A DNA stretch of 64,000 nucleotides. Source: Escherichia coli (GTDB lineage Bacteria > Pseudomonadota > Gammaproteobacteria > Enterobacterales > Enterobacteriaceae). Where the stretch lies: the NCBI RefSeq assembly GCF_024298765.1, contig NZ_CP101210.1; one strand, 5' to 3'. Below the pieces are notes generated by a model that had not been told where the DNA came from, did no database searches, and was given only the letters and a program-made list of their open reading frames with translations. This document shows positions 28,885 through 57,184 of this stretch, in pieces. A program made the position numbers and the translations under genes. The stretch's first letter is position 1. Each line of letters begins with the position of its first letter.

Positions 28885-29778
28885 ATGACGAATTTAAAAG
28901 CAGTTATACCGGTAGCAGGTCTTGGGATGCATATGTTGCCTGCCACTAAGGCGATTCCCAAAGAGATGCTACCGATCGTCGACAAGCCAATGATTCAGTA
29001 CATTGTTGACGAGATTGTGGCTGCAGGGATCAAAGAAATCCTCCTGGTAACTCATGCGTCCAAGAACGCGGTCGAAAACCACTTCGACACCTCTTATGAA
29101 TTAGAATCTCTCCTTGAACAGCGCGTGAAGCGTCAGCTGCTGGCGGAAGTGCAGTCCATCTGTCCGCCTGGCGTGACCATTATGAACGTGCGTCAGGGTG
29201 AACCTTTAGGTTTGGGCCACTCCATTTTATGTGCACGACCCGCCATTGGTGACAACCCATTTGTCGTGGTGCTGCCAGACGTTGTGATCGATGACGCCAG
29301 CGCCGACCCGCTGCGCTACAACCTTGCTGCCATGATTGCGCGCTTCAACGAAACGGGCCGCAGCCAGGTGCTGGCAAAACGTATGCCGGGTGACCTCTCT
29401 GAATACTCCGTCATTCAGACCAAAGAACCGCTGGACCGTGAAGGCAAAGTCAGCCGCATTGTTGAATTTATCGAAAAACCGGATCAGCCGCAGACGCTGG
29501 ACTCAGACATCATGGCCGTAGGTCGTTATGTGCTTTCTGCTGATATTTGGCCGGAACTGGAACGTACTCAGCCTGGTGCATGGGGGCGTATTCAGCTTAC
29601 TGATGCTATTGCCGAACTGGCGAAAAAACAGTCCGTTGATGCCATGCTGATGACTGGAGACAGCTACGACTGCGGTAAAAAAATGGGCTATATGCAGGCG
29701 TTTGTGAAGTATGGGCTGCGCAACCTGAAAGAAGGGGCGAAGTTCCGCAAAGGTATTGAGAAGGTGTTAAGTGAATAA
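28885..29778 (+). CDS. galF: UTP-glucose-1-phosphate uridylyltransferase paralogue (GalU-like regulatory subunit)
   Basis: 297 aa; nucleotidyltransferase motif [25 protein letters not shown]. Confidence 0.95.
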
Positions 29779-30011
29779 AAATTGATCATCCATATATGGT
29801 GGATTGAATAAAAATAGAACTGCAGTGAACATTCAAAAGAAAAGATGATTACGTTATAAGAATGTTCCTGTCTTTTATTGAAAGTATTTAATAACAATAA
29901 GTTACAGCATGTATCGCTCGTACATAGATTTTCCTTGTATTTGACTTCGTTTGATTAGACTATTGGAAAATAGTGAAAAGTATTAAATAATTAGTACCTA
30001 TGATTCATTTT

Positions 30012-30050
30012 CAGTGAGTTGGTAACTGTTAAGCCAAGGGCGGTAGCGTG
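30012..30050 (+). promoter_or_regulatory. JUMPstart element with ops (GGCGGTAGCGTG, 30039-30050) in O-antigen operon leader
   Basis: cagtgagttggtaactgttaagccaagggcggtagcgtg; same 39-bp architecture as the wza leader copy. Confidence 0.85.
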
Positions 30051-30085
30051 TGTTTTGATCCTACCCACGTAATATGGACACAGGC

Positions 30086-30841
30086 CTAAGCGAGGTTCTG
30101 GTTTTCAAATTGTTCCGGACTGAGGCCGCCACACCAACTGTGCCGCCGCCACCGATTGTAATCACATTCGATATAATTAAACACCGTTGCCCGCATTATT
30201 TCCCGGCTGATAAAGTGTTCTCCATGGATACATTCCACTTTCAGCGAATGAAAGAAGCTTTCCACGCAGGCATTATCGTAGCAGCAACCTTTTGCGCTCA
30301 TACTTCCACGCAGATTATGCCGCTTCAGTTGCGCCGTCATGCGTGGCGACATTGACCAGCCAATAACGGCACGTGACCACAGGTCAATGACCACTGCCAG
30401 ATACAGCCAGCCTTCATCTGTACGTAAGTACGTGATGTCTCCTGCCCACTTCTGGTTCGGGCCACTGGCGTAAAAATCCTGCTCCAACAGATTTTCTGAC
30501 ACAGGCAGGCCGTGTGCGCGGTAGCTGACCGGGCTGAACTTCCGGGAGGCCTTTGCCCTCAGTCCCTGACGGCGCAGGCTTGCCGCCACGGTTTTTACGT
30601 TAAAGGGGTAACCCTGAGCACGCAGTTCATCCGTCAGGCGTGGGGCACCGTAACGCTGTTTTGACCGGGTAAAAGCCGCGAGGACAACGCTGTCGCAGTG
30701 TTGGCGGAACTGCTGACGCGTGCTTATCCTTGTCCGCCGCTGACACCACGTATACCAGCCGCTGCGGGCCACCCGGAGCACGCGGCACATTGCTTTGATG
30801 CTGAACTCAGCCTGATGTTTTTCAATAAAGACATACTTCAT
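30086..30841 (-). pseudogene. insF: IS3 OrfB transposase catalytic domain, apparently truncated by in-frame internal deletion (251 aa versus recalled 288 aa)
   Basis: [19 protein letters not shown]...; junction PRMTAQL|KRHNLRG at about 30326/30327; recalled intact OrfB has about 37 extra residues here including HTDRGGQY. Confidence 0.7.
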
Positions 30842-31146
30842 TTCAGGCGCTTCGCGAAGTATGTCGCGGCCTTTTGGAGGATAGCCAGCTCTTCATCCCG
30901 TTCTGCCAGCTGGCGTTTGAGACGTGCAATCTCGGTAGACATCTCCAGTTCACGTTCAGAAGACGTCTGCTGATTTTGCTGTTTACTGCGCCAGTTGTAG
31001 AGCTGTGATTCATACAGGCTGAGTTCACGGGCTGCGGCAGTAACACCGATGCGTTCAGCAAGCTTCAGGGCTTCACTGCGAAATTCAGGCGAATGCTGTT
31101 TACGGGGTTTTTTACTGGTTGATACTGTTTTTGTCATGTGAGTCAC
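30838..31146 (-). CDS. insE: IS3 OrfA (transposase N-terminal HTH protein)
   Basis: 102-aa ORF ...[50 protein letters not shown]...; leucine-zipper-like C-terminus. Confidence 0.9.
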
Positions 31147-31237
31147 CTCTGACTGAGAGTTTACTCACTTAGCCGCGTGTCCACTATTGCTGGGTAAGAT
31201 CATTTTTCTCTCAATCCTCATGATAAAGGAGGTTTAT

Positions 31238-32257
31238 ATGGTGATTTTCGTAACAGGCGGTGCAGGATATATTGGATCCCATACCATACTTGAGTTACTT
31301 AATAATGGTCATGATGCCGTTTCGATAGATAATTTTGCCAATTCCTCTATAGAATCATTAAAAAGAGTAGAGCAAATAACTAATAAGAAAATTATTTCTT
31401 ATCAAGGTGATATCCGTGATAAAAATCTACTTGATGAGATTTTTTCAAGACATCATATCGATGCTGTAATTCATTTTGCATCGTTAAAATCTGTAGGTGA
31501 GTCAAAGTTAAAGCCCTTAGAGTATTATTCTAATAATGTTGGTGGAACTTTAGTATTACTTGAATGCATGAAGAGATATAACATTAATAAAATGATATTT
31601 AGCTCTTCTGCTACTGTTTATGGGAATAACAGTATCCCTCCCCATACGGAAGATAGACGAATTGGTGAAACTACAAACCCATATGGGACATCGAAGTTTA
31701 TAATAGAAATGATTTTGAGTGATTATTGTGATAGCGATAATAATAAATCAGTAATTGCACTACGTTATTTTAATCCAATCGGAGCACATAAGTCCGGGAT
31801 GATTGGTGAAAATCCTAACGGGATTCCTAATAATCTGGTTCCTTATATATCTAAAGTTGCACAAAATCAACTTCCTGTATTAAATATTTATGGCAACGAT
31901 TATCCAACTAAAGATGGTACAGGAGTAAGAGACTATATACATGTCTGTGATTTGGCTAAAGGGCATGTTAAAGCATTAGAATATATGTTTTTAAATGATG
32001 TCAATTATGAGGCTTTTAATTTAGGTACTGGTCAAGGTTATTCTGTTTTAGAGATTGTAAAAATGTTTGAGATAGTCACTAAAAAGAGTATACCTTTTGC
32101 TATTTGTAATAGACGTGAGGGGGATGTTGCTGAGTCATGGGCGTCTGCTGATTTGGCACATGAAAAGCTTTCCTGGAAAGCGGAAAAAAAATTGAAAGAA
32201 ATGATCGAAGATGTATGGCGTTGGCAAACAAAAAATCCAAATGGATATAAAAAATAA
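31238..32257 (+). CDS. UDP-hexose 4-epimerase (GalE/Gne family), first O-antigen gene
   Basis: Start at ATG 31238 with AGGAGG RBS (track ORF begins 31187, overlapping the IS end); 339 aa; TGGAGYIGSHT Rossmann, NPYGTSK, YxxxK; AT-rich. Confidence 0.85.
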   Translation: MVIFVTGGAGYIGSHTILELLNNGHDAVSIDNFANSSIESLKRVEQITNKKIISYQGDIRDKNLLDEIFSRHHIDAVIHFASLKSVGESKLKPLEYYSNNVGGTLVLLECMKRYNINKMIFSSSATVYGNNSIPPHTEDRRIGETTNPYGTSKFIIEMILSDYCDSDNNKSVIALRYFNPIGAHKSGMIGENPNGIPNNLVPYISKVAQNQLPVLNIYGNDYPTKDGTGVRDYIHVCDLAKGHVKALEYMFLNDVNYEAFNLGTGQGYSVLEIVKMFEIVTKKSIPFAICNRREGDVAESWASADLAHEKLSWKAEKKLKEMIEDVWRWQTKNPNGYKK

Positions 32258-32275
32258 TTTTTGGAATTTTGATAT

Positions 32276-33292
32276 ATGAAAAATGTTGGTTTTATTGTTA
32301 CAAAATCAGAAATTGGTGGTGCACAAACATGGGTAAATGAAATATCTAACCTTATTAAAGAGGAATGTAATATATTTCTTATTACATCTGAAGAAGGATG
32401 GCTCACACATAAAGATGTCTTTGCTGGAGTTTTTGTCATACCAGGTATTAAAAAATATTTTGACTTCCTTACATTGTTTAAATTGAGAAAAATTTTAAAA
32501 GAAAATAATATTTCAACATTAATAGCAAGTTCTGCTAATGCCGGAGTTTATGCTAGGTTAGTTCGATTACTAGTCGACTTTAAATGTATTTATGTTTCGC
32601 ATGGATGGTCTTGTTTATATAATGGTGGTCGACTAAAATCAATTTTTTGTATTGTGGAGAAATACCTTTCTTTATTAACTGATGTTATATGGTGTGTTTC
32701 CAAAAGTGATGAAAAAAAAGCAATTGAGAAAATTGGTATAAAAGAAACAAAGATAATCACAGTATCGAATTCAGTGCCTCAGATGCCAAGATGTAATAAT
32801 AAACCACTCCAGTATAAAGTTCTGTTTGTTGGTAGGTTAACACACCCTAAGCGCCCCGAATTGTTAGCGAATGTAATATCGAAAAAGCCCCAGTATAGCC
32901 TCCATGTCGTAGGAGGGGGGGAAAGGTTAGAATCATTGAAGAAACAATTCAGTGAATGTGAAAATATTCATTTTATGGGTGAGGTCAATAATTTTTATAA
33001 CTATCATGAGTATGATTTATTTTCACTGATATCCGATAGTGAAGGTTTGCCTATGTCAGGCCTTGAGGCTCACACAGCTGCAATACCACTCCTTTTAAGT
33101 GATGTGGGCGGATGTTTTGAATTAATTGAGGGTAATGGGGTACTTGTGGAAAATACTGAAGACGACATTGGATATAAATTGGATAAAATATTCGATGACT
33201 ATGAAAATTATCGGGAACAGGCAATTCGTGCCTCCGGAAAATTTGTTATCGAGAACTATGCTTCAGCATATAAAAGCATTATTTTAGGTTGA
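32276..33292 (+). CDS. Glycosyltransferase, GT4 family (retaining, GT-B)
   Basis: 338 aa; EX7E-type motif SEGLPMSGLEAHTAAIPLL; AT-rich. Confidence 0.75.
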   Translation: MKNVGFIVTKSEIGGAQTWVNEISNLIKEECNIFLITSEEGWLTHKDVFAGVFVIPGIKKYFDFLTLFKLRKILKENNISTLIASSANAGVYARLVRLLVDFKCIYVSHGWSCLYNGGRLKSIFCIVEKYLSLLTDVIWCVSKSDEKKAIEKIGIKETKIITVSNSVPQMPRCNNKPLQYKVLFVGRLTHPKRPELLANVISKKPQYSLHVVGGGERLESLKKQFSECENIHFMGEVNNFYNYHEYDLFSLISDSEGLPMSGLEAHTAAIPLLLSDVGGCFELIEGNGVLVENTEDDIGYKLDKIFDDYENYREQAIRASGKFVIENYASAYKSIILG

Positions 33293-33318
33293 GTATTTTT
33301 TAGAACAGGAAATGTAAA

Positions 33319-34440
33319 ATGGCTAAAGTCGCTCTCATTACTGGCATAACCGGACAAGACGGTTCTTACCTGGCAGAGTTTCTGCTGGAAAAAGGTTACG
33401 AGGTGCATGGTATTAAGCGTCGTGCATCGTCATTCAACACCGAGCGCGTGGATCACATTTATCAGGATCCGCACACCTGCAACCCGAAATTCCATCTGCA
33501 TTATGGCGACCTGAGTGATACCTCCAACCTGACGCGCATTTTGTGTGAAGTGCAGCCGGATGAAGTGTACAACCTTGGCGCAATGAGTCACGTTGCGGTC
33601 TCTTTTGAGTCACCGGAATATACCGCAGACGTTGATGCGATGGGTACGCTGCGCCTGCTCGAGGCGATCCGCTTCCTCGGTCTGGAAAAGAAAACCCGTT
33701 TCTATCAGGCTTCCACTTCTGAACTGTACGGTCTGGTGCAGGAGATTCCGCAGAAAGAGACCACGCCGTTCTACCCACGCTCTCCGTATGCAGTCGCCAA
33801 ACTGTACGCCTACTGGATCACCGTTAACTACCGCGAATCCTACGGCATGTACGCCTGTAACGGTATTCTCTTTAACCATGAATCCCCGCGCCGCGGCGAA
33901 ACCTTCGTTACCCGCAAAATCACCCGCGCAATCGCCAACATCGCACAGGGGCTGGAGTCGTGCCTGTACCTCGGCAATATGGATTCCCTGCGTGACTGGG
34001 GCCACGCCAAAGACTACGTAAAAATGCAGTGGATGATGCTGCAACAGGAACAGCCGGAAGATTTCGTCATCGCTACCGGCGTTCAGTATTCCGTGCGTCA
34101 GTTCGTGGAAATGGCGGCAGAGCGAGTCGGAATCAAACTGCGTTTTGAAGGCGCAGGTGTAGATGAGAAAGGGATAGTGGTTTCTGTTAATGGTGAGGAT
34201 GCTCCAGCAGTTAAACCTGGAGATGTAATCGTTAAGGTTGACCCGCGTTACTTCCGTCCGGCTGAAGTTGAAACACTGCTCGGCGACCCGACCAAAGCGC
34301 ACGAAAAACTGGGCTGGAAACCGGAAATCACCCTCAGAGAGATGGTGTCTGAAATGGTGGCTAATGACCTCGAAGCGGCGAAAAAACACTCTCTGCTGAA
34401 ATCTCACGGCTACGACGTGGCGATCGCGCTGGAGTCATAA
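33319..34440 (+). CDS. gmd: GDP-mannose 4,6-dehydratase (O-antigen copy)
   Basis: 373 aa; near-identical to colanic acid gmd apart from a divergent patch at about 34110-34255. Confidence 0.95.
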
Positions 34441-34442
34441 GC

Positions 34443-35408
34443 ATGAGTAAACAACGCATTTTTATCGCTGGCCATCGTGGGATGGTCGGTTCTGCCATCA
34501 GGCGGCAGCTCAAACAGCGCGGTGATGTGGAACTGGTATTACGCACCCGCGACGAGCTGAACCTGCTGGACAGCCGCGCGGTGCATGATTTCTTTGCCAG
34601 CGAACGCATTGACCAGGTCTATCTGGCGGCGGCGAAAGTGGGCGGCATTGTTGCCAACAACACCTATCCGGCGGATTTCATCTACCAGAACATGATGATT
34701 GAGAGCAACATCATTCACGCCGCGCATCAGAACGACGTGAACAAACTGCTGTTTCTCGGATCGTCCTGTATCTACCCGAAACTGGCAAAACAGCCGATGG
34801 CAGAAAGCGAGTTATTGCAGGGCACGCTGGAGCCGACCAACGAGCCTTACGCCATTGCCAAAATCGCCGGGATCAAACTGTGCGAATCTTACAACCGCCA
34901 GTATGGACGCGATTACCGCTCAGTCATGCCGACCAACCTGTACGGGCCGCACGACAACTTCCACCCGAGTAACTCGCACGTGATCCCTGCATTGCTGCGT
35001 CGCTTCCACGAGGCGACGGCACAGAATGCGCCGGACGTGGTGGTGTGGGGCAGCGGTACACCGATGCGCGAATTTCTGCACGTTGATGATATGGCAGCGG
35101 CGAGCATTCATGTGATGGAGCTGGCGCACGAAGTCTGGCAGGAGAACACCCGGCCGATGCTGTCGCACATTAACGTCGGCACGGGCGTTGACTGCACTAT
35201 CCGTGAGCTGGCGCAAACCATCGCCAAAGTGGTGGGTTACAAAGGTCGGGTGGTTTTTGATGCCAGCAAACCGGATGGTACGCCGCGCAAACTGCTGGAT
35301 GTGACGCGCCTGCATCAGCTTGGCTGGTATCACGAAATCTCACTGGAAGCGGGGCTTGCCAGCACTTACCTGTGGTTCCTTGAGAATCAAGACCGCTTTC
35401 GGGGGTAA
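34443..35408 (+). CDS. fcl: GDP-L-fucose synthase (O-antigen copy)
   Basis: 321 aa; nucleotide-identical to colanic acid fcl across the whole gene by line-by-line comparison. Confidence 0.95.
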
Positions 35409-35911
35409 TGATGTTTTTACGTCAGGAAGACTTTGCCACGGTAGTGCGCTCCACCCCGCTTGTCTCCCTCGACTTTATTGTTGAGAACAGTCGCGGCGAG
35501 TTTCTGCTTGGCAAAAGAACCAACCGCCCGGCGCAGGGTTACTGGTTTGTGCCGGGAGGGCGCGTGCAGAAAGACGAAACGCTGGAAGCCGCATTTGAGC
35601 GGCTGACGCTTGCGGAACTGGGGTTGCGTCTGCCGATAACAGCAGGCCAGTTTTACGGTGTCTGGCAGCACTTTTATGACGATAACTTCTCCGGCTCGGA
35701 TTTCACCACTCACTATGTGGTGCTCGGTTTTCGCATCAGAGTAGCGGAAGAAAAGCTGTTACTGCCGGATGAGCAGCATGACGATTACCGCTGGCTGACG
35801 CCGGACGCGTTGCTCGCCAGTGACAATGTTCACGCTAACAGCCGAGCTTATTTTAATCATGATCCAAGAGCTGTTATTGGTTTAGATAAAAAGGATGTCA
35901 AAAATGTCTGA
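35408..35911 (+). CDS. gmm: GDP-mannose mannosyl hydrolase (O-antigen copy, divergent C-terminus)
   Basis: 167 aa; first ~145 aa near-identical to colanic gmm, then diverges after ...NSRAYF; 3' end overlaps manC. Confidence 0.85.
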
Positions 35912-37352
35912 TGTACCGTTGATTGCTGTTGTAATGGCTGGTGGTACGGGTAGCCGTCTTTGGCCCCTCTCAAGAGAGCACTATCCGAAGCAATTTCTGC
36001 AATTATCAGGTGAGAATACTTTATTACAGTCAACCTTATTACGACTATCCCCGCTTTCTTGCGAAACTCCATTAGTAATAACAAATGAGCAACATCGCTT
36101 TGTGGTTGCAGAACAATTACGTCAAATTGATCAGTTAAGAGATAATATTATTCTTGAGCCATGTGGAAGAAATACGGCTCCCGCCATAGCTCTTTCAGCA
36201 TTTACAGCTTTGAAGCGTAATGAACAACAGGATCCTATTTTGTTGATTCTCGCAGCTGACCATATTATAAGCAAAGCGGATGTTTTTTGTGACGCTATTC
36301 AAAAATCGAAAACTGTAGCTGAACAGGGGAATATTGTAACCTTTGGGATTATACCTGAATATGCGGAAACAGGTTATGGTTATATAAAAAAAGGAGATCC
36401 TTTTAAAATTTTACCAAATATTACTGATGATAAGTTTTATCATGTCCAACAATTTATTGAAAAACCTAACCATTCGACGGCAGAAGAGTATGTTTCCACA
36501 GGAGAATATCTCTGGAATAGTGGAATGTTTATGTTTAAAGCATCAGTATATTTAGAGGAATTGAAAAAGCACAGGCCTGATATATACGAAATCTGTGAGC
36601 AGACAGCTTCATTATCCTATAACGATCTTGATTTCATACGATTGCCTAAACATATTTTCCAAGATTGTCCGTCGGAATCAATTGATTTTGCGGTTATGGA
36701 AAAAACAAAAAATTGCATTGTTCGTCCAGTAGACATCGGGTGGAGTGATGTAGGCTCTTGGCATTCTTTGTGGGATATTAGTGATAAAACGCAGGATGGA
36801 GATGTCTGTAAAGGTGATATTCTAACTTATAACACTAAAAACAATTATATATATTGTGAATCAGCCCTAGTGGCTGCTGTAGGTGTAGAAGATATAGTTA
36901 TTGTTCAAACAAAAGATGCTATTCTCGTGTCCAAAAAAACTGAGGTTCAGGATGTAAAAAAAATAGTAGAAATGCTTAAGGAACATGAGCGCTCAGAGTA
37001 TATATCGCATCGAGAGGAGTTTCGGCCTTGGGGAAAATTTGATGCGATAGATCAGGGAGAACGATATAAAGTTAAAAAGATAGTTGTGAAACCCGGCGAA
37101 GGACTATCCTTACGAATGCACCATCATCGTTCTGAGCATTGGATTGTTCTTTCCGGCACAGCAAAAGTAACTTTAAACGATAAAACAGTATTGCTTGCTG
37201 CAAATGAATCAATCTACATTCCTCTAGGAGCAACGTATAGTCTTGAAAATCCAGGAATAATCCCTCTGAATCTTATTGAGGTTAGTTCAGGCGATTATTT
37301 AGGTGAGGATGATATTGTACGGCAAAAAGAACGCTACAGAATAGATGACTAA
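35895..37352 (+). CDS. manC: Mannose-1-phosphate guanylyltransferase (O-antigen copy, divergent and AT-rich)
   Basis: 485 aa; [12 protein letters not shown] nucleotidyltransferase motif; clearly diverged from cpsB in protein and composition. Confidence 0.9.
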
Positions 37353-37355
37353 TAT

Positions 37356-38735
37356 ATGAAAAAATTAACCTGCTTTAAAGCCTATGATATTCGCGGGAAA
37401 TTAGGTGAAGAACTGAATGAAGATATCGCCTGGCGCATTGGTCGCGCCTATGGCGAATTTCTCAAACCGAAAACCATTGTGTTAGGCGGTGATGTCCGCC
37501 TCACCAGCGAAACCTTAAAACTGGCGCTGGCAAAAGGTTTGCAGGATGCGGGCGTCGATGTGCTGGATATTGGTATGTCCGGCACCGAAGAGATCTATTT
37601 CGCCACGTTCCATCTCGGCGTGGATGGCGGCATTGAAGTTACCGCCAGTCATAATCCGATGGATTACAACGGCATGAAACTGGTGCGCGAAGGGGCTCGC
37701 CCGATCAGCGGCGATACCGGACTGCGCGATGTCCAGCGTCTGGCAGAAGCCAACGACTTTCCTCCCGTTGATGAAACCAAACGCGGTCGCTATCAGCAAA
37801 TCAACCTGCGTGACGCTTACGTTGATCACCTGTTCGGTTATATCAGTGTCAAAAACCTTACGCCGCTCAAGCTGGTGATTAACTCCGGGAACGGCGCGGC
37901 GGGTCCGGTGGTGGACGCCATTGAAGCCCGCTTTAAAGCCCTCGGCGCACCGGTGGAATTAATCAAAGTACACAACACGCCGGACGGCAATTTCCCCAAC
38001 GGTATTCCTAACCCGTTGCTGCCGGAATGCCGCGACGACACCCGTCATGCGGTCATCAAACACGGCGCGGATATGGGCATTGCCTTTGATGGCGATTTTG
38101 ACCGCTGTTTCCTGTTTGACGAAAAAGGGCAGTTTATCGAGGGCTACTACATTGTCGGCTTGCTGGCACAAGCGTTCCTCGAAAAAAATCCCGGCGCGAA
38201 GATCATCCACGATCCACGTCTCTCCTGGAACACCGTTGATGTGGTGACTGCCGCAGGCGGCACCCCGGTAATGTCGAAAACCGGACACGCCTTTATTAAA
38301 GAACGGATGCGCAAGGAAGACGCCATCTACGGTGGCGAAATGAGCGCCCACCATTACTTCCGTGATTTTGCTTACTGCGACAGCGGCATGATCCCGTGGC
38401 TGCTGGTCGCCGAACTGGTGTGTCTGAAAGGAAAAACGCTGGGCGAACTGGTGCGCGACCGGATGGCAGCATTTCCGGCAAGCGGTGAGATCAACAGCAA
38501 ACTGGCGGACCCCGTTGAGGCGATTAACCGCGTGGAACAGCATTTTAGCCGTGAGGCGCTGGCGGTGGATCGCACCGATGGCATCAGTATGACCTTTGCC
38601 GACTGGCGCTTTAACCTGCGCTCCTCCAACACCGAACCGGTGGTGCGCCTGAATGTGGAATCGCGCGGTAATATAGCATTAATGAATGAACAGGTTGAAT
38701 TTATTACAAAATTTTTAAACGGTGATGGTTTATGA
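37356..38735 (+). CDS. manB: Phosphomannomutase (O-antigen copy)
   Basis: 459 aa; near-identical to cpsG in the stretches compared except the last ~20 codons. Confidence 0.95.
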
Positions 38736-39289
38736 GAATATTAAAAATTATTATAAGTGTATTGTTGTTTATAAAAAAGAAAAGAAAAAAAATACCGGAC
38801 TCAGCAATAATAAACTTAACAAGTCATGTGGATAAACATTCAGTAATTGGAAAGTGTTGTTATATAGGGAAAAATGTATATATAACTAAAAGTATCATTG
38901 GGAATTACACATCTATTGCAAATAATGTCTCAATTGGTCAAGGTGAACATAAGGTTGATGCAGTTAGTACAAGTTCGATGTTCTACGATAATGAATTCGA
39001 AGATTTAACACAAAACGATTGTATTATAGGTAATGATGTGTGGCTCGGTACAGGAGTTACTGTATTACGAGGGGTAAGAATTGGTGATGGTGCTATTATT
39101 GGTGCTAATGCCGTTGTCACAAAAAATATTCCAGATTATTGTATTGCGGTAGGAGTACCTGCGAAAGTAATCAAAAGAAGATTACCAGTAAATGTTACTG
39201 AAAAAATAAAAGAGACTAAATGGTGGAATGATGAATATGAAGTGGCGAAGGATAAAATTATTTGCTTAACAAATGAATTAAAGTTATGA
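38732..39289 (+). CDS. O-acetyltransferase, hexapeptide-repeat (LbH) family
   Basis: 185 aa; repeats such as [31 protein letters not shown]; 4-bp overlap with manB; AT-rich. Confidence 0.75.
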
Positions 39290-40728
39290 ACAAAAAAGAA
39301 ATAATTATCTTGCTTATAGCCAGAATTCTACAGATTCTCATTAGTTTATTCACAATGAGATTGATGACAACGATTTTAAGCAATGAGCAAATGGGGGAGT
39401 ATTATATTTTTTTAGCAATCTATATGTTGGCATCATTGGGTATAATTAATCCAATAGGACAATATGTGAATCGCAACACTTATTTATGGTGGAGAGAGGG
39501 AGTACTAACCCAATATATTGATCGATATATTAATTTTGTTTTGTGTTTTTCGCTTATTTATGTGATTTTGTATGGACTTGGTGAATGTTTGTTTAAAGGA
39601 ATAAATACACCATTTTGGATGTTATTCTGTTATTTATATATAGTATGTTTATCTCTAAACCAATTTCTATTACATACTTTAAATATCTTAAATTTTAAGA
39701 TAGTATTTTCCATTATGACGTTGATGACTTCTGTATTAAGTTTATCAGGGGCATATTTATTTATTGAATATAGCATAGCTAAACAAACTGTTAGTATATA
39801 TTACTGGGTTGCAGGAATCATAATTGGCAATTTTATTTCTTTATGTATATGCGTTGTATATCTGAGATGTAGAAATACGTTCCAAAAATCAATTCCTAAA
39901 TCTATCAATGTAAGCATAAAAGAAGTTTTTAATTTTTGCTGTCCAATTATGATAACAACTTTGTTCATTTGGTTTCAAAGCTCTGGATATCGATTTGCTG
40001 TCGAGCAAATGTTTGGCTTAAAGTTTTTAGGTATACTAGCTGTATGTTTTGCTGTGTCAGGGCAAATAATGTCAGTGATTGAGTCTTTAGTGACACAGAT
40101 ATTTCAACCAACATTATTTAAGCATATGGATAATGTCAAAAATAGAAAGCAACATCTAGATTTTTATATTAATGAAAATATAGCAATTTATGCTAGTGTA
40201 TTATTTTTTTGTACTTTCTTTATGCGCGAAATATTTTTGGTTTTAGTTGACAATAAATATCTTCCTTACTTCTATATAGGTATAATAGCTTTATGGAGTG
40301 AATTTTTTAGGATATCAACCAATACTTTGTCTTTAGTGTTTTTTTGCGAAAAGAAAATGAAGGTGGGAATTTTTCCTTATTTAATTGGCTCATTAAGTCT
40401 GGCTTTTTCGATCGTCTTGTTCAGGTTGTTAAATGTAAATTTGGGTATTTTAATAGCTTTTGCTATTGGGATTGCACAATTGGCCTCCTTTATCGTTTGC
40501 TTAATTACGGTAAAAAAAATCTCTTATTTTAAAATAAATTCCATCTTCTTAATGAAGAGGATAATAATAGTACTACCTTCTGTGTTAATTGCCCATTGCA
40601 TTCCTAAATTTGAAATGATTAATGCTGTCCATTTTATTATCATTTTCGGTGTCGGTTTATTTTACTTAATCTCTTTAGTTACTTCTTTTATGTTTATTAA
40701 ACAACCAGGAGGTGTTTATGGAAGTTAA
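39286..40728 (+). CDS. wzx: O-antigen flippase (Wzx-like polytopic membrane protein)
   Basis: 480 aa, very hydrophobic with about 12 predicted TM segments; position in O-antigen cluster. Confidence 0.7.
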   Translation: MNKKEIIILLIARILQILISLFTMRLMTTILSNEQMGEYYIFLAIYMLASLGIINPIGQYVNRNTYLWWREGVLTQYIDRYINFVLCFSLIYVILYGLGECLFKGINTPFWMLFCYLYIVCLSLNQFLLHTLNILNFKIVFSIMTLMTSVLSLSGAYLFIEYSIAKQTVSIYYWVAGIIIGNFISLCICVVYLRCRNTFQKSIPKSINVSIKEVFNFCCPIMITTLFIWFQSSGYRFAVEQMFGLKFLGILAVCFAVSGQIMSVIESLVTQIFQPTLFKHMDNVKNRKQHLDFYINENIAIYASVLFFCTFFMREIFLVLVDNKYLPYFYIGIIALWSEFFRISTNTLSLVFFCEKKMKVGIFPYLIGSLSLAFSIVLFRLLNVNLGILIAFAIGIAQLASFIVCLITVKKISYFKINSIFLMKRIIIVLPSVLIAHCIPKFEMINAVHFIIIFGVGLFYLISLVTSFMFIKQPGGVYGS

Positions 40729-41569
40729 AATTATTGGGGGACTTGGCAATCAGATGTTTCAGTATGCAACTGCATTTGCTATTGCAAAAAGAACTCATCA
40801 AAATTTGACTGTTGATATATCTGATGCAGTAAAATATAAAACTCATCCATTAAGATTAGTTGAATTATCTTGTAGTTCAGAATTTGTAAAAAAAGCATGG
40901 CCATTTGAAAAATACTTATTTTCCGAAAAAATCCCACATTTCATGAAAAAAGAAATGTTCAGAAAGCATTACGTTGAGAAAAGTTTAGAGTATGATCCAG
41001 ATATTGATACTAAAAGTATAAATAAAAAAATCGTCGGTTATTTTCAAACTGAAAAATATTTTAAGGAATTTAGGCATGAGTTGATAAAGGAATTTCAACC
41101 TAAAACTAAGTTTAATAGTTATCAAAATGAATTGCTTAATTTAATTAAAGAAAATGATACTTGTTCATTGCATATTAGAAGAGGTGATTATGTTTCCAGT
41201 AAAATAGCAAATGAAACTCATGGTACATGTAGTGAAAAATATTTTGAACGTGCCATTGATTATTTGATGAATAAAGGTGTTATTAATAACAAAACCCTTC
41301 TCTTCATTTTTTCTGATGATATAAAGTGGTGCAGGGAAAATATATTTTTTAATAATCAAATATGTTTTGTTCAAGGTGATGCTTATCATGTTGAATTAGA
41401 TATGTTGCTTATGAGTAAATGTAAAAATAATATAATTTCAAATAGTTCTTTCAGTTGGTGGGCTGCTTGGTTAAATGAAAATAAAAATAAAACAGTAATT
41501 GCTCCGAGTAAATGGTTTAAGAAAGATATTAAACATGATATTATTCCCGAATCGTGGGTAAAATTATGA
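40718..41569 (+). CDS. Alpha-1,2-fucosyltransferase (GT11 family)
   Basis: Start at ATG 40718 with AGGAGG RBS; GT11 signature HIRRGDYV; N-terminal GGLGNQMFQYA; co-located with GDP-fucose genes. Confidence 0.8.
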   Translation: MEVKIIGGLGNQMFQYATAFAIAKRTHQNLTVDISDAVKYKTHPLRLVELSCSSEFVKKAWPFEKYLFSEKIPHFMKKEMFRKHYVEKSLEYDPDIDTKSINKKIVGYFQTEKYFKEFRHELIKEFQPKTKFNSYQNELLNLIKENDTCSLHIRRGDYVSSKIANETHGTCSEKYFERAIDYLMNKGVINNKTLLFIFSDDIKWCRENIFFNNQICFVQGDAYHVELDMLLMSKCKNNIISNSSFSWWAAWLNENKNKTVIAPSKWFKKDIKHDIIPESWVKL

Positions 41570-42432
41570 TGGAAGATACAAAAGAATTAATAACAGTAAT
41601 AATGCCTGTTTATAATGCGGAAAAATACATATATGAATCTATAAAAAGTATTTTGGTGCAGTCATATTCTAATTTTGAGTTCATCATTATTAATGATGGC
41701 TCAAAAGATTCTTCTGGAAAAATTATTGAAAACTTTCTCGATGATACGAGGATACGATATATAAATCGTGAAAATAAAGGTTTGGTCTTCACTCTGAATG
41801 AAGCTATTTCGTTATCAAGAGGAAATTATATTGCTCGAATGGATGCTGATGATATTTCACATCCCCTACGATTAGAAAAGCAACTAAATTTTCTACTAGA
41901 AAATCCAGATATAGCCGTAGTTGGGTGTTCTTCTTTTATTATTGACCAAAATTCTAAGGTTATAAATACGCGAAAACCACCTTTGACACCTTTAGTAAAT
42001 AAAGCATTGCTATTTTTTGGCCCAACATTAACTCATCCATCAGTGATGTTTAATAAAATACTACTTGGAGATCAGCTTTACTACAGTGATAAATATCTTC
42101 ATGTTGAAGATTATGACTTGTGGTTGAGGTTAATTAATCAATACAAAATAGCTAATATCAAAGATGTTCTTTTTTACTATCGAATTAATGAGTCAGGTGT
42201 TTCACAGACTAATTTATTTGAACAAAAAATTAATGCTGCTAAAGCATATAGTGAAATTAAATATGATGGTAAGTATAAAGACTTACTGGAAAAGTTAGAA
42301 GTCATACACCTGAGACATGAAATGGAGAAAAGTAAGGTCTTTCAGGCCGTATTATATATATTATTAAAGTATGAACATGATTCATTATTATTTTTAAAAT
42401 TAGGATATATATTACGATGGTTAATAAAATAA
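41554..42432 (+). CDS. Glycosyltransferase, GT2 family
   Basis: 292 aa; VIMPVYNAEKYI...IIINDGSKDSS and ARMDADD (DXD-type) motifs. Confidence 0.8.
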   Translation: MGKIMMEDTKELITVIMPVYNAEKYIYESIKSILVQSYSNFEFIIINDGSKDSSGKIIENFLDDTRIRYINRENKGLVFTLNEAISLSRGNYIARMDADDISHPLRLEKQLNFLLENPDIAVVGCSSFIIDQNSKVINTRKPPLTPLVNKALLFFGPTLTHPSVMFNKILLGDQLYYSDKYLHVEDYDLWLRLINQYKIANIKDVLFYYRINESGVSQTNLFEQKINAAKAYSEIKYDGKYKDLLEKLEVIHLRHEMEKSKVFQAVLYILLKYEHDSLLFLKLGYILRWLIK

Positions 42433-43316
42433 AAATAGCACTAATAAGTACAGAAAAAGCTAATCTTCCTGAAATTGAAGCCTATAAGGAGTATTTTTCG
42501 GAGCCATTTGATGTCTCTGTTGTTAATAAAAATGATGATTTAAGTTGTTATGATGTTTTATGGTACTTTATGGGGTTTAAAGGTAATAAAATAAACTCTA
42601 AACAGTTCTTGATTCATGAGTTTTCCTCAATTTCAGTACCACCATTTCCAAAAATAAAAAACGTTATCAAGAAATTTATTTTGCCTAAACCTAATTTGAG
42701 GGTTTTTTTAAATAAATCAGTGCAACAACAATTCGATTTTAATGATAGAGTTCCTTTTTGTTACCGAGATATGGGCGTCAATTATAAACCAGTAGTTGAA
42801 AGAAATAATAAAAAATATGATATATTATATGTGGGGGCAATTACTGGTAGAAAACTAGATGATGCATTAAATTTGATTTTGTCATATAAATTAGATTGTA
42901 AAATCGCAATTCTTGGTAAAGTGCCAGAAAAGTTCAAAGAAAAATATAAAAATACTGATGTTATATTTCTTGGGCAAGTTCCTTATAATCGGGTAGCCAC
43001 CATTATTGCAGAATCTAACTTGTGTTTAAATTGGATTCCGAATATTTATCCATATAACATGCAGACATCAACAAAATTCTTAGAGTATCTGGCACAAAAT
43101 AAACAAATAATATCGAATAGCTACCCTTGGGTTGACTCTTATTGTCAACAGCATAATATTGACTATATTAATGTCAATGATTCCAATTCTATTCGACAAG
43201 CATTGAACTCAGTCATAATCCAAAAATCAACACATATCCCCCCAAGTTGGCGAGAGGTTATTATGAATAGCGGGATAGAGAATCACATTAAATCATATTT
43301 TGAGGTAACAAAATGA
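42417..43316 (+). CDS. Putative glycosyltransferase (family not recognisable from motifs)
   Basis: 299 aa, AT-rich, 16-bp overlap with upstream GT2 gene; C-terminal region loosely resembles a GT-B C-terminal domain. Confidence 0.5.
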   Translation: MVNKIKIALISTEKANLPEIEAYKEYFSEPFDVSVVNKNDDLSCYDVLWYFMGFKGNKINSKQFLIHEFSSISVPPFPKIKNVIKKFILPKPNLRVFLNKSVQQQFDFNDRVPFCYRDMGVNYKPVVERNNKKYDILYVGAITGRKLDDALNLILSYKLDCKIAILGKVPEKFKEKYKNTDVIFLGQVPYNRVATIIAESNLCLNWIPNIYPYNMQTSTKFLEYLAQNKQIISNSYPWVDSYCQQHNIDYINVNDSNSIRQALNSVIIQKSTHIPPSWREVIMNSGIENHIKSYFEVTK

Positions 43317-44356
43317 TTTCTTACGGAGTGCTATTTCTCTTCTCTTATATCAATGCTGTACTTCAGAAGAGAGTAACCGTAACGTTACTATTTTTTATAA
43401 TGATAATTGTTTCTTTCTTTAAATATAATATTGGATTTGATTGGGGGAATTATCATGAAATTTACCTTCAGCAAGGAGATGGCTTTTTTTTTAATGAACC
43501 CCTATTTTCTCTCTTAATTATTCTTTCCAATAAGGTTGCATTAGAATATAAATATTTTATATCAATGTGCTCATTAATTACACTGATTGTTTATTATTCT
43601 GGTATGCGGTGTTTTGCAAGAGATATAAAAGAGTTAGCTTTAGCATTAACTTATTTTGTTGTCTCTTATTGCTACTTTGAACACTTTAATATTATTCGAC
43701 AAGCTTTAGCAATCGCTTTATTCTTTTATAGTTGGAAATATATTATTGAGACTAACTTTATAATGTATAGCCTCTTTATTTTTTTTGCATCTATGATTCA
43801 TGCGGCGGCGGTTGTATTGCTCCCATTTTACTTTTTCCTTAGAATTGATAATTTTAAACCTGTATATTATGGTATAGTGGTCTTATTTATTATTATTGTT
43901 GTTAGATTCGATATTAACAGCATCCTTTTAAGTTCACTTAATTTATTTAAAAATTTCGATTTTGTAGCCAGGTATTTAGCAAATTCAACAGATTTGGCTG
44001 ACTTTGCATCAAAAAAATCTGATCTTGGATTAAGTAAGATATACCCAGCAATTATATTTGTTTTCTGTTGTTTTTGGGGAGGGATTAGGTTAGAGTCTCG
44101 AAGAGACTATGTTTTTTTTAATGCTGGCTTTATTGCAATAACTTTACTGCTCTTAAGCTATCAGGTTGATATTTTGTTTAGATTTTTCTCTTTTTTTGAG
44201 ACTTCATTTGTCTTGTTGTACTGCATTATTTTTTCTGGTTTTAATAAAAAAAGTAAAATTATACTGCATATGGTTAATTTAATTGTATATACGGTAATGA
44301 CATTTAACATGTTATCAGTAATGGGCTTGATTCCTTATGAATCATACATTTTCTAA
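43313..44356 (+). CDS. wzy: O-antigen polymerase (Wzy-like polytopic membrane protein)
   Basis: 347 aa, highly hydrophobic and Phe/Ile/Leu-rich, very AT-rich; 4-bp overlap with upstream gene. Confidence 0.6.
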   Translation: MISYGVLFLFSYINAVLQKRVTVTLLFFIMIIVSFFKYNIGFDWGNYHEIYLQQGDGFFFNEPLFSLLIILSNKVALEYKYFISMCSLITLIVYYSGMRCFARDIKELALALTYFVVSYCYFEHFNIIRQALAIALFFYSWKYIIETNFIMYSLFIFFASMIHAAAVVLLPFYFFLRIDNFKPVYYGIVVLFIIIVVRFDINSILLSSLNLFKNFDFVARYLANSTDLADFASKKSDLGLSKIYPAIIFVFCCFWGGIRLESRRDYVFFNAGFIAITLLLLSYQVDILFRFFSFFETSFVLLYCIIFSGFNKKSKIILHMVNLIVYTVMTFNMLSVMGLIPYESYIF

Positions 44357-44837
44357 TAAGCTTCCCTCAGTTGTTTGTTGTATAGTAATATTTTAATATC
44401 ATTGCAGTGTGTAATTATTGTCAATAAGCTAATTTCTGTTATTTGCATGATTAATTCAGTTTGCAATGCTTGATGTAAAAAGATAAAGTGCACCCGTTTA
44501 CACAATGTTTATTTTGGCATGTCAAGTATAAGTTCTAAATAATACGTTTGTAATGTTTAGCATGTAAACATAATAGTTAAATAATATTAAACATGCAACA
44601 TGCCATTTGTTATTCTAATAAAACATATGTGTTGTGTGAATTATTTAATGTGGAAAGTGGTTGCGTATTATAAATTGTTCATATTGACGTTTAAGTCTTT
44701 TATAACTCCATGCTTGCATGTTAAAAACATTTCGCTATATATTCGCTATATATTATGGTAGGTGGTTTTTATCTAGGCAGATTTGTCTATTTAACTCTAA
44801 ATCTAAATCGCTTAAGAAAGTATGAGTAGGAGTATTT

Positions 44838-45857
44838 ATGGCTATTCTCGTTACAGGTGGTGCTGGTTATATTGCATCACATACTATACTGAGTTTGATA
44901 GAGCAGGGTAATGAAGTAATTATTATTGATAATTTATCAAATTCATATTATGATTCGTTATTGAAAATAAAAGAGATTACTGGATGTGATTGTCTTTTTT
45001 ATAAAGGAGATATCCTTGACAAAAAACTCTTGCTAAAAATATTTGATGAAAATAATATCACTGCTGTGATGCATTTTGCTGGTGCAAAGTCTGTAAGTGA
45101 ATCTGTTATCAGACCTTTGCAATACTATCGAAATAATGTCTCTGGCACTTTTTCTTTAGTTGAGGCAATGGAGGAGTCTGGTGTAGAAAATTTAATATTT
45201 AGCTCTTCAGCAACTGTCTATGGTGAGCCAAAGATTATTCCTGTGAATGAAAGTTGTGCTATAGGTGGTACTACAAATCCGTATGGAACGTCCAAGTTAT
45301 TTGTAGAGAACTTTTTGCGGGATTATTCTAAGGCATCCCCTAATTTTAAAACTATAGTATTAAGATATTTTAACCCTATCGGTGCTCACTCATCTGGAAA
45401 AATAGGTGAAGATCCTAACGGAATTCCGAATAACTTGATGCCCTTTATATGCCAGGTTGCTATCGGTAAACAAAAAACGCTCAAGATCTACGGAAATGAT
45501 TATCCTACTAAAGATGGTACTGGGATTCGCGATTATATTCATGTTATGGATCTTGCTGAAGGTCATGTTGCTGCATTAAATAATATTAATCAAGGAGCTA
45601 ATTATAGAGTTTACAACCTTGGAACAGGAATTGGATACTCTGTGTTGGAATTATTAGAAGCATTTCAGAAAGTTACAACTCGGAGAGTTCCCTATGTTTT
45701 TACTAAAAGGCGTTCAGGTGATATCGCTGAATGTTGGTCTGATCCTACCAAAGCGTATGAAGAATTAGGATGGAAAGCAAGGCGAGGGTTAGAAGATATG
45801 ATTCGTGATGCATGGAATTGGCAGCAAAAAAATCCAAATGGATTTAAGAAAGTTTAA
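44838..45857 (+). CDS. UDP-hexose 4-epimerase (GalE/Gne family), last O-antigen gene
   Basis: 339 aa; TGGAGYIASHT, NPYGTSK, IYGNDYPTKDGTGIRDYIHV; paralogous to the 31238 gene. Confidence 0.85.
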   Translation: MAILVTGGAGYIASHTILSLIEQGNEVIIIDNLSNSYYDSLLKIKEITGCDCLFYKGDILDKKLLLKIFDENNITAVMHFAGAKSVSESVIRPLQYYRNNVSGTFSLVEAMEESGVENLIFSSSATVYGEPKIIPVNESCAIGGTTNPYGTSKLFVENFLRDYSKASPNFKTIVLRYFNPIGAHSSGKIGEDPNGIPNNLMPFICQVAIGKQKTLKIYGNDYPTKDGTGIRDYIHVMDLAEGHVAALNNINQGANYRVYNLGTGIGYSVLELLEAFQKVTTRRVPYVFTKRRSGDIAECWSDPTKAYEELGWKARRGLEDMIRDAWNWQQKNPNGFKKV

Positions 45858-45963
45858 TAAAAATGAAACGATATATTAAGTGTTAGCTTGTTTAATTAAT
45901 TTAAAGTTAATATTATTTACATTAATATGTAATGAAAGTGATATTCTATGACAGGAGTAAACA

Positions 45964-47370
45964 ATGTCAAAGCAACAGATCGGCGTAGTCGGTATGGCAG
46001 TGATGGGGCGCAACCTTGCGCTCAACATCGAAAGCCGTGGTTATACCGTCTCTATTTTCAACCGTTCCCGTGAAAAGACGGAAGAAGTGATTGCCGAAAA
46101 TCCAGGCAAGAAACTGGTTCCTTACTATACGGTGAAAGAGTTTGTTGAATCTCTGGAAACGCCTCGTCGCATCCTGTTAATGGTGAAAGCAGGTGCAGGC
46201 ACGGATGCTGCTATTGATTCCCTCAAGCCATACCTCGATAAAGGTGACATCATTATTGATGGTGGTAATACCTTCTTCCAGGATACCATTCGTCGTAACC
46301 GTGAGCTTTCTGCCGAAGGTTTTAACTTCATTGGTACCGGTGTCTCCGGTGGTGAAGAAGGCGCGCTGAAAGGTCCTTCCATCATGCCTGGTGGGCAGAA
46401 AGAAGCCTATGAACTGGTTGCACCGATCCTGACCAAAATCGCCGCCGTTGCTGAAGATGGCGAACCGTGCGTTACCTATATTGCTGCCGATGGCGCGGGT
46501 CACTATGTGAAGATGGTTCACAACGGTATTGAATACGGTGATATGCAACTGATTGCTGAAGCCTATTCTCTCCTGAAAGGCGGCCTGAATCTTTCTAACG
46601 AAGAACTGGCACAGACCTTTACCGAGTGGAATAACGGTGAACTGAGCAGCTACCTGATCGACATCACCAAAGACATCTTCACTAAAAAAGATGAAGACGG
46701 TAACTACCTGGTTGATGTGATCCTGGATGAAGCGGCTAACAAAGGTACCGGTAAATGGACCAGCCAGAGCGCGCTGGATCTCGGAGAACCGCTGTCGCTG
46801 ATTACCGAGTCTGTGTTTGCACGTTATATCTCTTCTCTGAAAGATCAGCGTGTTGCAGCGTCTAAAGTTCTCTCTGGTCCGCAAGCGCAGCCTGCTGGCG
46901 ACAAGGCTGAGTTCATCGAAAAAGTTCGTCGTGCTCTGTATCTGGGCAAAATCGTTTCTTACGCCCAAGGCTTCTCTCAGCTGCGTGCTGCGTCTGAAGA
47001 GTACAACTGGGATCTGAACTACGGCGAAATCGCGAAGATTTTCCGTGCTGGCTGCATCATCCGTGCGCAGTTCCTGCAGAAAATCACCGATGCTTATGCC
47101 GAAAATCCGCAGATCGCTAACCTGCTGCTGGCTCCGTACTTCAAGCAAATTGCCGATGACTACCAGCAGGCGCTGCGTGATGTCGTTGCTTATGCAGTAC
47201 AGAACGGTATCCCGGTTCCGACCTTCGCGGCTGCGGTTGCCTATTATGACAGCTACCGCGCCGCAGTTCTGCCTGCAAACCTGATCCAGGCACAGCGTGA
47301 CTATTTCGGTGCGCATACTTATAAGCGCATTGATAAAGAAGGTGTGTTCCATACTGAATGGCTGGATTAA
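45964..47370 (+). CDS. gnd: 6-phosphogluconate dehydrogenase, decarboxylating
   Basis: 468 aa; N-terminal [19 protein letters not shown]-binding motif. Confidence 0.97.
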
Positions 47371-47395
47371 TCTGATTTAACCAACAATAAAATTG

Positions 47396-47429
47396 AGGCC
47401 CGGCGTATATTGCACCGGGCTTTTTTTTG
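47396..47429 (+). terminator. Rho-independent terminator after gnd
   Basis: GC hairpin GCCCGG...CCGGGC followed by a T8 run. Confidence 0.8.
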
Positions 47430-47609
47430 CCAAATATCTTATAGACTAAATTTCACTGCTTAATATTAACTTAATAAATATCAGCTATTCTTATAAAGAA
47501 AATCTGAATTGTTTTTCGTTGCGTTGACCATCTGACAACGTAGCGTTAAAACTTTTAACTCTTATCAGGATGCTAAAAACATCATGATTCACAGTTAAGT
47601 TAATTCTGA

Positions 47610-48785
<1,176 letters not shown>

Positions 48786-57120: not shown

Positions 57121-57184
57121 TTTCTCATGCGTTCATGTACCACTGGAAGATCTGAATGTCTTCCAGCACACATCGCCTGAAAGA

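Follow-up and report, generated by a model that had tools for sequence, protein, structure and literature searches.

Colanic acid paralogues as the probable source of GC-rich tracts in the low-GC O128 O-antigen gene cluster of Escherichia coli

Introduction

Why do the genes for guanosine diphosphate (GDP)-fucose synthesis stand out as GC-rich, colanic-like sequence from an O-antigen gene cluster that is otherwise strongly AT-rich? The question is raised by the galF-gnd region of a 64-kb stretch of Escherichia coli DNA (contig NZ_CP101210.1), hereafter called the window, whose positions serve as coordinates throughout and whose bearer we call the window strain. By its sequence, it represents the E. 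coli gene cluster for the O128 O antigen, of the Wzx/Wzy-dependent type: positions 29800-46000 share 99.8% identity with LHM10-1 and CP52E and 99.6% with seven more genomes, one of them labelled O128:H27, and RefSeq names the wzx and wzy products as O128 family flippase and O128 family polymerase. Identity over wzx and wzy is 99.7% to 99.9% to strain 90-9281 (labelled O128:H27) and LHM10-1 and 99.2% to 99.4% to the O128ac strain AW1.7, and Wzy carries the Pfam domain EpsG. The cluster lies between galF (28885-29778) and gnd (45964-47370), with the colanic acid operon upstream and ugd-wzz-his downstream. An initial annotation, made from the letters alone, had proposed that it was acquired horizontally from a lower-GC donor and later patched by resident paralogues.

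The region is very probably best read as an AT-rich mobile module whose GDP-fucose genes have been overwritten by their colanic acid paralogues, recurrently and in both directions. The serogroup-specific genes (two epimerases, four glycosyltransferases, an acetyltransferase, wzx, and wzy) would, together with manC, form an AT-rich and horizontally mobile module, of which gmd, fcl, most of gmm, and manB up to codon 439 would once have been low-GC members. Homologous recombination in the form of non-reciprocal gene conversion with the colanic paralogues would then have overwritten gmd-fcl-gmm and manB, each tract beginning at the start codon, stopping where the divergence of the ancestral sequences no longer allowed alignment, and leaving a short low-GC tail behind. 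The older events would have copied colanic sequence into the O-antigen cluster, while the latest event in the window strain would have copied an O-antigen allele of ca. 0.6 to 1.3 kb (3' gmd, fcl, and 5' gmm) into the colanic acid operon. The structure of the tracts and published recombination between manB and cpsG (PMC4173774) suggest a RecA-type mechanism.

Composition and homology limits of the GC-rich tracts

We tested composition by sliding GC content, by GC content per gene overall and at third codon positions (GC3), and by unsupervised maximum-likelihood GC segmentation of 26 to 50 kb. The segmentation placed breakpoints at 31195, 33417, 35992, 37427, 38669, and 45972, which lie -43, +117, +142, +77, -31, and +72 bp from the steps that the initial annotation had read by eye at 31.238, 33.3, 35.85, 37.35, 38.7, and 45.9 kb, so that its picture of an AT-rich island broken by high-GC GDP-fucose tracts holds at all six steps within 31 to 142 bp. 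The resulting segments have GC contents of 0.335 (31195-33416), 0.545 (33417-35991), 0.364 (35992-37426), 0.564 (37427-38668), and 0.295 (38669-45971), and the log-likelihood gain of the top GC step is 146, whereas 200 base shuffles never exceeded 10.4. GC3 is 0.19 to 0.27 in the low-GC genes versus 0.58 to 0.70 in the high-GC genes, with GC at first and second codon positions (GC1 and GC2) likewise depressed, and an index similar to the codon adaptation index, set against native his/gnd/wca codon usage, takes values of 0.38 to 0.45 and 0.57 to 0.71, respectively. Sliding GC and codon adaptation, two of the checks that had been proposed along with the island, both show the claimed pattern. Taken together, the low-GC parts (10.8 kb) have a GC content of 0.314 versus 0.514 for the remainder of the window. 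The annotation was slightly off in letting the low-GC DNA begin at 31238, as the step is indeed there but the true start is 31203, the end of an IS3 element. The claimed contrast to the flanks in codon usage and GC is equally real, though the flanks are not uniformly GC-rich: wcaD (0.42), wcaE (0.45), wcaF (0.475), wcaM (0.476), gnu (0.451), ugd (0.44), and wzz (0.45) have moderately low GC contents of 0.42 to 0.48 over 10900-13500, 26100-28650, and 47600-49900, and the same values have been reported for these flank genes in other strains (PMC5359238).

The high-GC exceptions are colanic-like gmd-fcl-gmm and manB, as the annotation had held, and homology delimits them at 33319-35853 and 37356-38672. 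The first tract (plus strand, GC 0.55) comprises gmd, fcl, and most of gmm and is 97.0% identical to colanic positions 13509-16044, with 71 differences in 2,535 sites. The second (plus strand, GC 0.55) comprises manB from its ATG to codon 439 and is 96.3% identical to cpsG at 18932-20248, with 49 evenly spread differences. Identity drops from 0.92-1.00 to 0.26-0.56 at 33319, 35853, 37356, and 38672, and both tracts are thus bounded on either side by diverged or non-homologous sequence, as expected of gene conversion. The colanic paralogues lie ca. 20 kb upstream of the O-antigen copies in the same orientation, and manC is unconverted and matches cpsB over 584 bp at no more than 64% nucleotide identity. 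Comparison of the O-antigen manB with cpsG alleles gives 44 to 64 differences in 1,314 sites and comparison of cpsG alleles with one another 34 to 58, which places this manB within the allelic diversity of cpsG. As every high-GC gene encodes a nucleotide-sugar enzyme and has the codon index of a native gene, one might suppose that the GDP-fucose genes became GC-rich by codon optimisation for expression, independently of the colanic genes. Convergence, however, could not produce 96% to 100% nucleotide identity to the paralogues with synonymous sites included, manC as an enzyme of the same pathway is not GC-rich, and the GC steps are abrupt and fall within codons, so that selection for expression has next to no chance of being the explanation.

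Low-GC relics and syntenic clusters in other genera

Each tract is followed by a low-GC relic of the gene that it occupies. The 3' end of gmm (35854-35911, plus strand, GC 0.31) overlaps the start of manC, and that of manB (38673-38735, plus strand, GC 0.24) encodes an extended C-terminus of the O-antigen type. Because the tracts end inside coding sequence and the low-GC tails finish the proteins, this arrangement argues for overwriting and not mere addition. Querying with Wzy brought up syntenic clusters in Citrobacter werkmanii, Pectobacterium punjabense, and Acinetobacter ursingii that share the order manC-(manB)-acetyltransferase-wzx-GT11 fucosyltransferase-GT2-GT-wzy (GT, glycosyltransferase), and the relic tails of gmm and manB are orthologous to tails in the syntenic clusters of other genera. 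The gmm relic is 74.5% identical to the C. werkmanii O-antigen copy versus 30% to 41% to colanic copies; at the protein level, the window Gmm tail resembles the C. werkmanii sequence QNDASHVIGLETKDVKYV, whereas colanic Gmm has a different end.

In C. werkmanii GCA_030646215.1, the galF-gnd region reads GT4-gmd-fcl-gmm-manC-manB-acetyltransferase-wzx-fucosyltransferase-GT2-GT-wzy, the same order as in E. coli O128ac, with 49% to 83% amino-acid identity to the window from manC to wzy, and this strain may make an O128-like antigen. Over nucleotides 1-1310, its O-antigen manB shares 97.3% identity with the cpsG of the same strain before giving way to a low-GC tail, but only 81% with E. coli cpsG, which marks it, to go by these identities, as an independent conversion by its own cpsG with almost the same 3' junction. 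Its gmd-fcl-gmm genes are unconverted (77.8% to their own colanic copy, GC 0.47 to 0.49). The colanic copies were found by walking upstream in C. werkmanii itself; a locus of Citrobacter youngae that we had considered as a stand-in was rejected, as it is not the colanic acid operon (manB 73%). P. punjabense and A. ursingii have the central module in common. The P. punjabense manB in its syntenic cluster is low in GC (0.386, GC3 0.283), as are gmd, fcl, and gmm of A. ursingii (0.36 to 0.42), and these genes give a picture of the unconverted state.

A cluster that never had its own gmd, fcl, gmm, and manB, and into which the colanic copies were duplicated at assembly with nothing patched, would likewise show tracts that start exactly at the gmd and manB start codons and are fully native in composition. 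Yet this scenario would not explain why the tracts end inside coding sequence and continue into low-GC tails orthologous to those of C. werkmanii and P. punjabense, why a syntenic cluster retains a low-GC manB, or why O128ac carries a further AT-rich relic at the gmd/fcl junction, and we therefore consider it highly improbable.

Recurrent rewriting of the tracts

Overwriting by colanic paralogues also accounts for the distribution of differences among O128 variants. Between the window (O128ab) and the O128ac strain AW1.7, the low-GC specific genes are 99.2% to 99.8% identical, whereas gmd, fcl, gmm, and manB reach only 94.1% to 96.6%. At the gmd/fcl junction (34407-34455), O128ac retains an AT-rich relic that has been lost from O128ab, and 17 of the 52 differences between the window and the O128:H27 strain 90-9281 fall within 33510-34089. 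The O-antigen gmd further contains a divergent patch (34084-34275, plus strand, GC 0.495) with 41 differences in 192 bp from every colanic allele, which is common to O128 and O127 O-antigen copies and has escaped overwriting. The idea of patching by resident paralogues thus finds strong support in the relic tails, the mosaic of the tracts, the excess divergence between O128 variants, and the parallel in C. werkmanii, and the rewriting of these tracts is recurrent and general.

Some observations nonetheless sit uneasily with this account. The divergent gmd patch is 76.0% identical to the O-antigen gmd of C. werkmanii and likewise 76.0% identical to its colanic gmd. As the unconverted C. werkmanii gmd-fcl-gmm genes have a GC content of 0.47 to 0.49, the Enterobacterales ancestor of these genes need not have been as AT-rich as manC. 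Finally, the first replacement would have occurred between sequences of ca. 65% to 78% identity, at which homologous recombination is inefficient, and overwriting leaves this step unexplained.

An identical block shared with the colanic acid operon

Within the first tract, a block of 1,333 bp (34276-35608, plus strand) shows zero differences from colanic positions 14466-15798; none of 200,000 random placements reached such a run, for which the analytic bound is 7e-22. The maximal conversion tract is accordingly 34276-35608 and the minimal one 34512-35482, or 34889-35482 without the window-only site 34512. Over this block, the window colanic copy differs from the window O-antigen copy at 0 sites and from other colanic alleles at 18 to 32; copies within the genome are thus closer than orthologues between genomes, the phylogenetic incongruence by which gene conversion is recognised. 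Of 4,689 genomes, only 9 gave a match of at least 99% to the window colanic block, each time inside an O128 O-antigen cluster (99.8%), while the best match in a colanic context reached 98.7%. When the query was anchored in wcaI, copies in colanic context did not exceed 99.1% across the 4,693 genomes with a full-length match in that context. The window colanic copy bears every O128-specific state within the block. In a comparison of 11 copies, its 35371T is otherwise found only in the O-antigen copies of the window and LHM10-1, and 34512A is confined to the two window copies. The block ends cleanly at informative sites, beyond which lie ordinary colanic alleles that differ from other strains at 0 to 3 sites. 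Since the block allele otherwise occurs only in O128 O-antigen clusters, the most parsimonious reading, which we consider likely, is that in the latest event, which was recent, the O-antigen copy converted the colanic one, with colanic 14466-15798 as the recipient. Patching by residents as first proposed thus stands for colanic sequence entering the O-antigen cluster but is not one-way, given that the latest event apparently ran from the O-antigen copy into the colanic one.

Direction was judged by allele-provenance searches and a site table; the density of differences along the colanic acid operon was rejected as a guide, the operon being too mosaic (0 to 24 differences per 500 bp). We note that the window O-antigen copy has T at 34769, as do several colanic alleles, while its nearest O128 relatives have C, which may reflect homoplasy or else an exchange that ran the other way inside this tract.

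A recent conversion into the colanic operon has to face several objections. Its direction rests on parsimony over few sites, of which one is window-specific and one is common only to LHM10-1. Moreover, the 1,333-bp identity could be an artefact of assembly or polishing in which reads of the O-antigen copy were placed on the colanic one: the allele in colanic context is found in no other of the 4,693 genomes mentioned above, and these paralogues are a known mapping hazard, with short reads in Salmonella not reliably assignable to one of them (PMC8550085). However, such an artefact would not readily give clean tract ends at informative sites next to ordinary colanic flanks, the window O-antigen copy has the colanic-type 34769T that its sister strains lack, suggesting a real exchange, and the same repeats recombine in nature in strain E41 (see below). 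We therefore regard an artefact as unlikely, and a genuine conversion from the O-antigen cluster remains the reading that we prefer.

Tract ends as module junctions and a deletion between the repeats

The O128ac cluster parts from that of O128ab at 33324, upstream of the gmd start, and O128 diverges from O90/O127 at 38662, just past the colanic-like part of manB, with a different manB tail in each serogroup. As 33324 and 38662 lie at tract ends, the junctions between modules coincide with the ends of the colanic-like tracts. In strain E41 (NZ_CP069707.1, 8427-13034), wcaF is followed directly by a gmd encoding a colanic-type protein, then by fcl and gmm of the O128 type, and then by manC. About 20 kb, comprising wcaI to galF as well as gne1 and the first glycosyltransferase gene, are gone, and one copy of the block is left in the genome. 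This deletion was likely caused by a crossover between the two gmd-fcl repeats, and E41 probably makes neither colanic acid nor a complete O128 antigen. Its wzzB has an internal stop.

Mobility of the module and its low GC content

The claim of horizontal acquisition fits the evidence, as the same cluster (99.7%) is found on colanic backgrounds that differ by 2% to 3% and syntenic clusters occur in three other genera. Specifically, the window and LHM10-1 are 99.7% identical over 30326-51761 and 97% to 98% identical over the colanic acid operon. The 5' gne-GT-gmd module is shared with the O90/O127 cluster at 99.5% to 99.7%, where manC is only 83% identical, and gne1 is 99.6% identical to that of the O127 strain EcPF16 and absent from the O128ac strain AW1.7.

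The second half of that claim, a lower-GC donor, is undemonstrated: none was found, and the module is equally AT-rich in four genera. The search for wzx/wzy homologues outside E. coli that had been proposed to check it gave 56% amino-acid identity for the best Wzy and no donor. A scan of 100,044 species genomes with ManC gave 62% amino-acid identity for the best non-E. coli match among the matches listed. The GC content of the module from the acetyltransferase gene to wzy is 0.289 in E. coli (flanking genes 0.50 to 0.55), 0.301 in C. werkmanii (0.51 to 0.53), 0.307 in P. punjabense (0.45 to 0.49), and 0.259 in A. ursingii (0.38 to 0.40), that is, 12 to 25 GC points below its flanks in every host examined, and the module proteins share 37% to 65% amino-acid identity across the four hosts. 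Such old divergence without drift to the GC content of the host implies that AT-richness travels with the module. This suggests that its low GC may be kept because selection acts on it or because the module circulates continually within a common gene pool, and would thus be maintained rather than not yet ameliorated; an ancient very-low-GC origin of the module is compatible with the same data.

The initial annotation instead took the low GC for the unameliorated mark of one recent transfer from a low-GC donor species, which agrees with the depression of GC1, GC2, and GC3 alike, with the movement of the cluster between E. coli backgrounds, and with the reading usual in textbooks (Samuel et al. 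2004, as cited in PMC5359238). This is doubtful in light of the low identities of the best ManC and Wzy matches, of the syntenic modules that have diverged to 37% to 65% amino-acid identity and all have GC contents of 0.26 to 0.31 in hosts with flanks of 0.38 to 0.55, and of Acinetobacter, in whose genome of ca. 40% GC the module is still ca. 12 to 14 points lower.

Layout of the cluster and neighbouring features

We drew the gene layout from the annotation of LHM10-1 and a list of open reading frames; the genes of the cluster all lie on the plus strand. Downstream of galF, the JUMPstart leader of the O-antigen operon (30012-30050, plus strand) matches Rfam RF01707 with 52.5 bits (gathering score 35), and a motif search located the ops element GGCGGTAG within it at 30039-30046. 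The first gene encodes a gne1/galE-type 4-epimerase (31238-32257, GC 0.33, GC3 0.23) and the second a glycosyltransferase of 338 aa (32276-33292, GC 0.335), followed by gmd (33319-34440), fcl (34443-35408), gmm (35408-35911), manC (35895-37352, GC 0.375, GC3 0.27), the start of which overlaps the 3' end of gmm, and manB (37356-38735), which is colanic-like to codon 439 before its low-GC tail. The O128-specific module (38732-44356, GC 0.289) then comprises genes for the acetyltransferase (38732-39289), Wzx (39286-40728), a protein annotated as alpha-1,2-fucosyltransferase (40718-41569), a GT2 glycosyltransferase (41566-42432), another glycosyltransferase (42417-43316), and Wzy (43313-44356). 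We equate this fucosyltransferase with the alpha-1,2-fucosyltransferase WbsJ of the literature (Li et al. 2008, as cited in PMC7685785). An AT-rich non-coding spacer of 481 bp (44357-44837, GC 0.28) separates wzy from the gene for a gne2/galE-type 4-epimerase (44838-45857, GC 0.35), the last before gnd. The O128 cluster was reportedly published around 2003. O128 reference strains such as the O128:H27 strain 90-9281 have the same genes in the same order at 99.6% to 99.8% identity, from which the window differs by an IS3 insertion (as in LHM10-1 and CP52E) and an 11-bp duplication in the spacer. Its 5' gne-GT variant occurs in only 9 of 5,426 complete genomes, the commoner O128 variant (e.g., O128ac AW1.7) having a GT4 gene in place of the 5' gne-GT. 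Besides the two galE/gne-type epimerases of the cluster, a third epimerase, gnu (27647-28642), lies upstream of galF and acts on GlcNAc-PP-undecaprenol (GlcNAc, N-acetylglucosamine). At the nucleotide level, gne1 shares only 65.6% identity with the gne2-type gene of AW1.7, itself 99.8% identical to the window gne2.

The insertion sequence IS3 (30057-31202, minus strand), annotated by RefSeq as an IS3 family transposase, sits between JUMPstart and the first O-antigen gene, has a native-like GC content of ca. 0.54, and is flanked by a 3-bp target duplication (TTT). The O128 strain 90-9281 and the O127 strain EcPF16 lack it and join position 30056 straight to 31203; the insertion is also present in LHM10-1 and CP52E and absent from seven other O128 genomes. 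Compared with the LHM10-1 copy, the window IS3 has an in-frame internal deletion of 111 bp (111 gap columns after 30325 in the alignment) within the transposase gene, with a 10-bp overlap at the junction. This deletion presumably removes a catalytic (DDE) residue of the transposase, and it could be real or an assembly error. Lying between the leader and the first gene, IS3 might lower O128 expression by a polar effect.

The spacer is conserved in all O128 variants and holds several promoter-like hexamer pairs on both strands. It had seemed hypervariable (97% identity versus at least 99.7% in its flanks), which is explained by one window-only 11-bp tandem duplication (TTCGCTATATA) at 44731-44741 and two or three single-nucleotide polymorphisms (SNPs). 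Across 29700-47500, we counted 77 sigma-70-like hexamer pairs on both strands compared with 55.9 +/- 7.9 in dinucleotide-preserving shuffles, an excess that would fit spurious promoters inside the genes of AT-rich DNA.

In the colanic acid operon, gmd (13509-14630), fcl (14633-15598), and gmm (to 16080) lie on the plus strand, followed by cpsB (17303-18739) and by cpsG (18932-20302, plus strand), the resident paralogue of manB. An algC RNA motif (Rfam, 78 bits) at 18878-18927 directly 5' of cpsG has no equivalent at the O-antigen manB, and as the homology to cpsG begins at the manB ATG, manB and cpsG therefore differ in their 5' regulatory context. At 4001-4500, a sharp dip in GC to 0.346 coincides with the leader of the colanic operon, which is non-coding. 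This leader contains a second JUMPstart (4362-4400, 57 bits) as well as an ops motif at 4389. Rfam additionally matched the REP (repetitive extragenic palindromic)-derived naRNA4 between wzxC and wcaK (23398-23468, minus strand), the His operon leader (57086-57209, minus strand) of the his operon, which lies on the minus strand, and the small RNA STnc240 (59948-60022, plus strand).

Discussion

Low-GC O-antigen clusters and the replacement of manB by cpsG are already textbook knowledge, and the locus in the window is of that kind. Jensen and Reeves are said to have described replacement or conversion between manB and cpsG in Salmonella in 2001. Like the low-GC clusters of E. coli and Salmonella in general, for which less than 40% GC between galF and gnd has been described (Samuel et al. 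2004, as cited in PMC5359238), the window cluster has its characteristic position, a JUMPstart leader, a GC content of ca. 0.29 to 0.35, and rare codons, and nothing essential differs. In O157, the O-antigen manB has been replaced by the colanic gene through gene conversion with cpsG (Samuel et al., as cited in PMC3158064). O157 and the window are alike in that manB is more than 95% identical to cpsG, has a low-GC manC beside it, and varies more from strain to strain than the remaining cluster does. Unlike in the O157 case, gmd-fcl-gmm is converted too in the window, the boundaries and tails are mapped to the base, and one event apparently ran from the O-antigen cluster into the colanic operon.

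Recombination between manB and cpsG has been seen to cause deletions in the long-term evolution experiment (PMC4173774), where the two are 96% identical, and in the O14 type strain (PMC7685785). These deletions use the same pair of direct repeats as substrate, and the E41 deletion between the gmd-fcl copies is analogous. Unlike such deletions, the outcome in the window is non-reciprocal conversion with both loci kept. What is added here are the base-level tract boundaries with their relic tails, the inclusion of gmd-fcl-gmm in conversion, the Citrobacter parallel, the position of tract ends at module junctions, and the probable back-conversion into the colanic operon, all of which are modest refinements; a literature search on gmd/fcl gene conversion with colanic acid found no paper in the collection searched. 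Their value lies in a clean and fully mapped example with base-level limits of the replacement, the unconverted state, and recurrence that includes another genus.

For practical work, neither O-typing nor SNP phylogeny nor read mapping can rely on gmd, fcl, gmm, and manB where the serogroup contains fucose or mannose, and low GC content by itself is no pointer to a specific low-GC donor. For the bacteria, the two repeats, at a distance of ca. 20 kb, carry a permanent risk of deletions in which both colanic acid and O-antigen genes are lost, as in E41. The back-flow of a serogroup-linked allele into colanic 14466-15798, the module junctions at tract ends, and the independent manB junction in Citrobacter together would make the tracts two-way recombination handles and more than passive patches, and we would put it at an even chance that they act so and that, in this role, concerted evolution with the colanic acid operon shapes new O-antigen clusters across the Enterobacterales.

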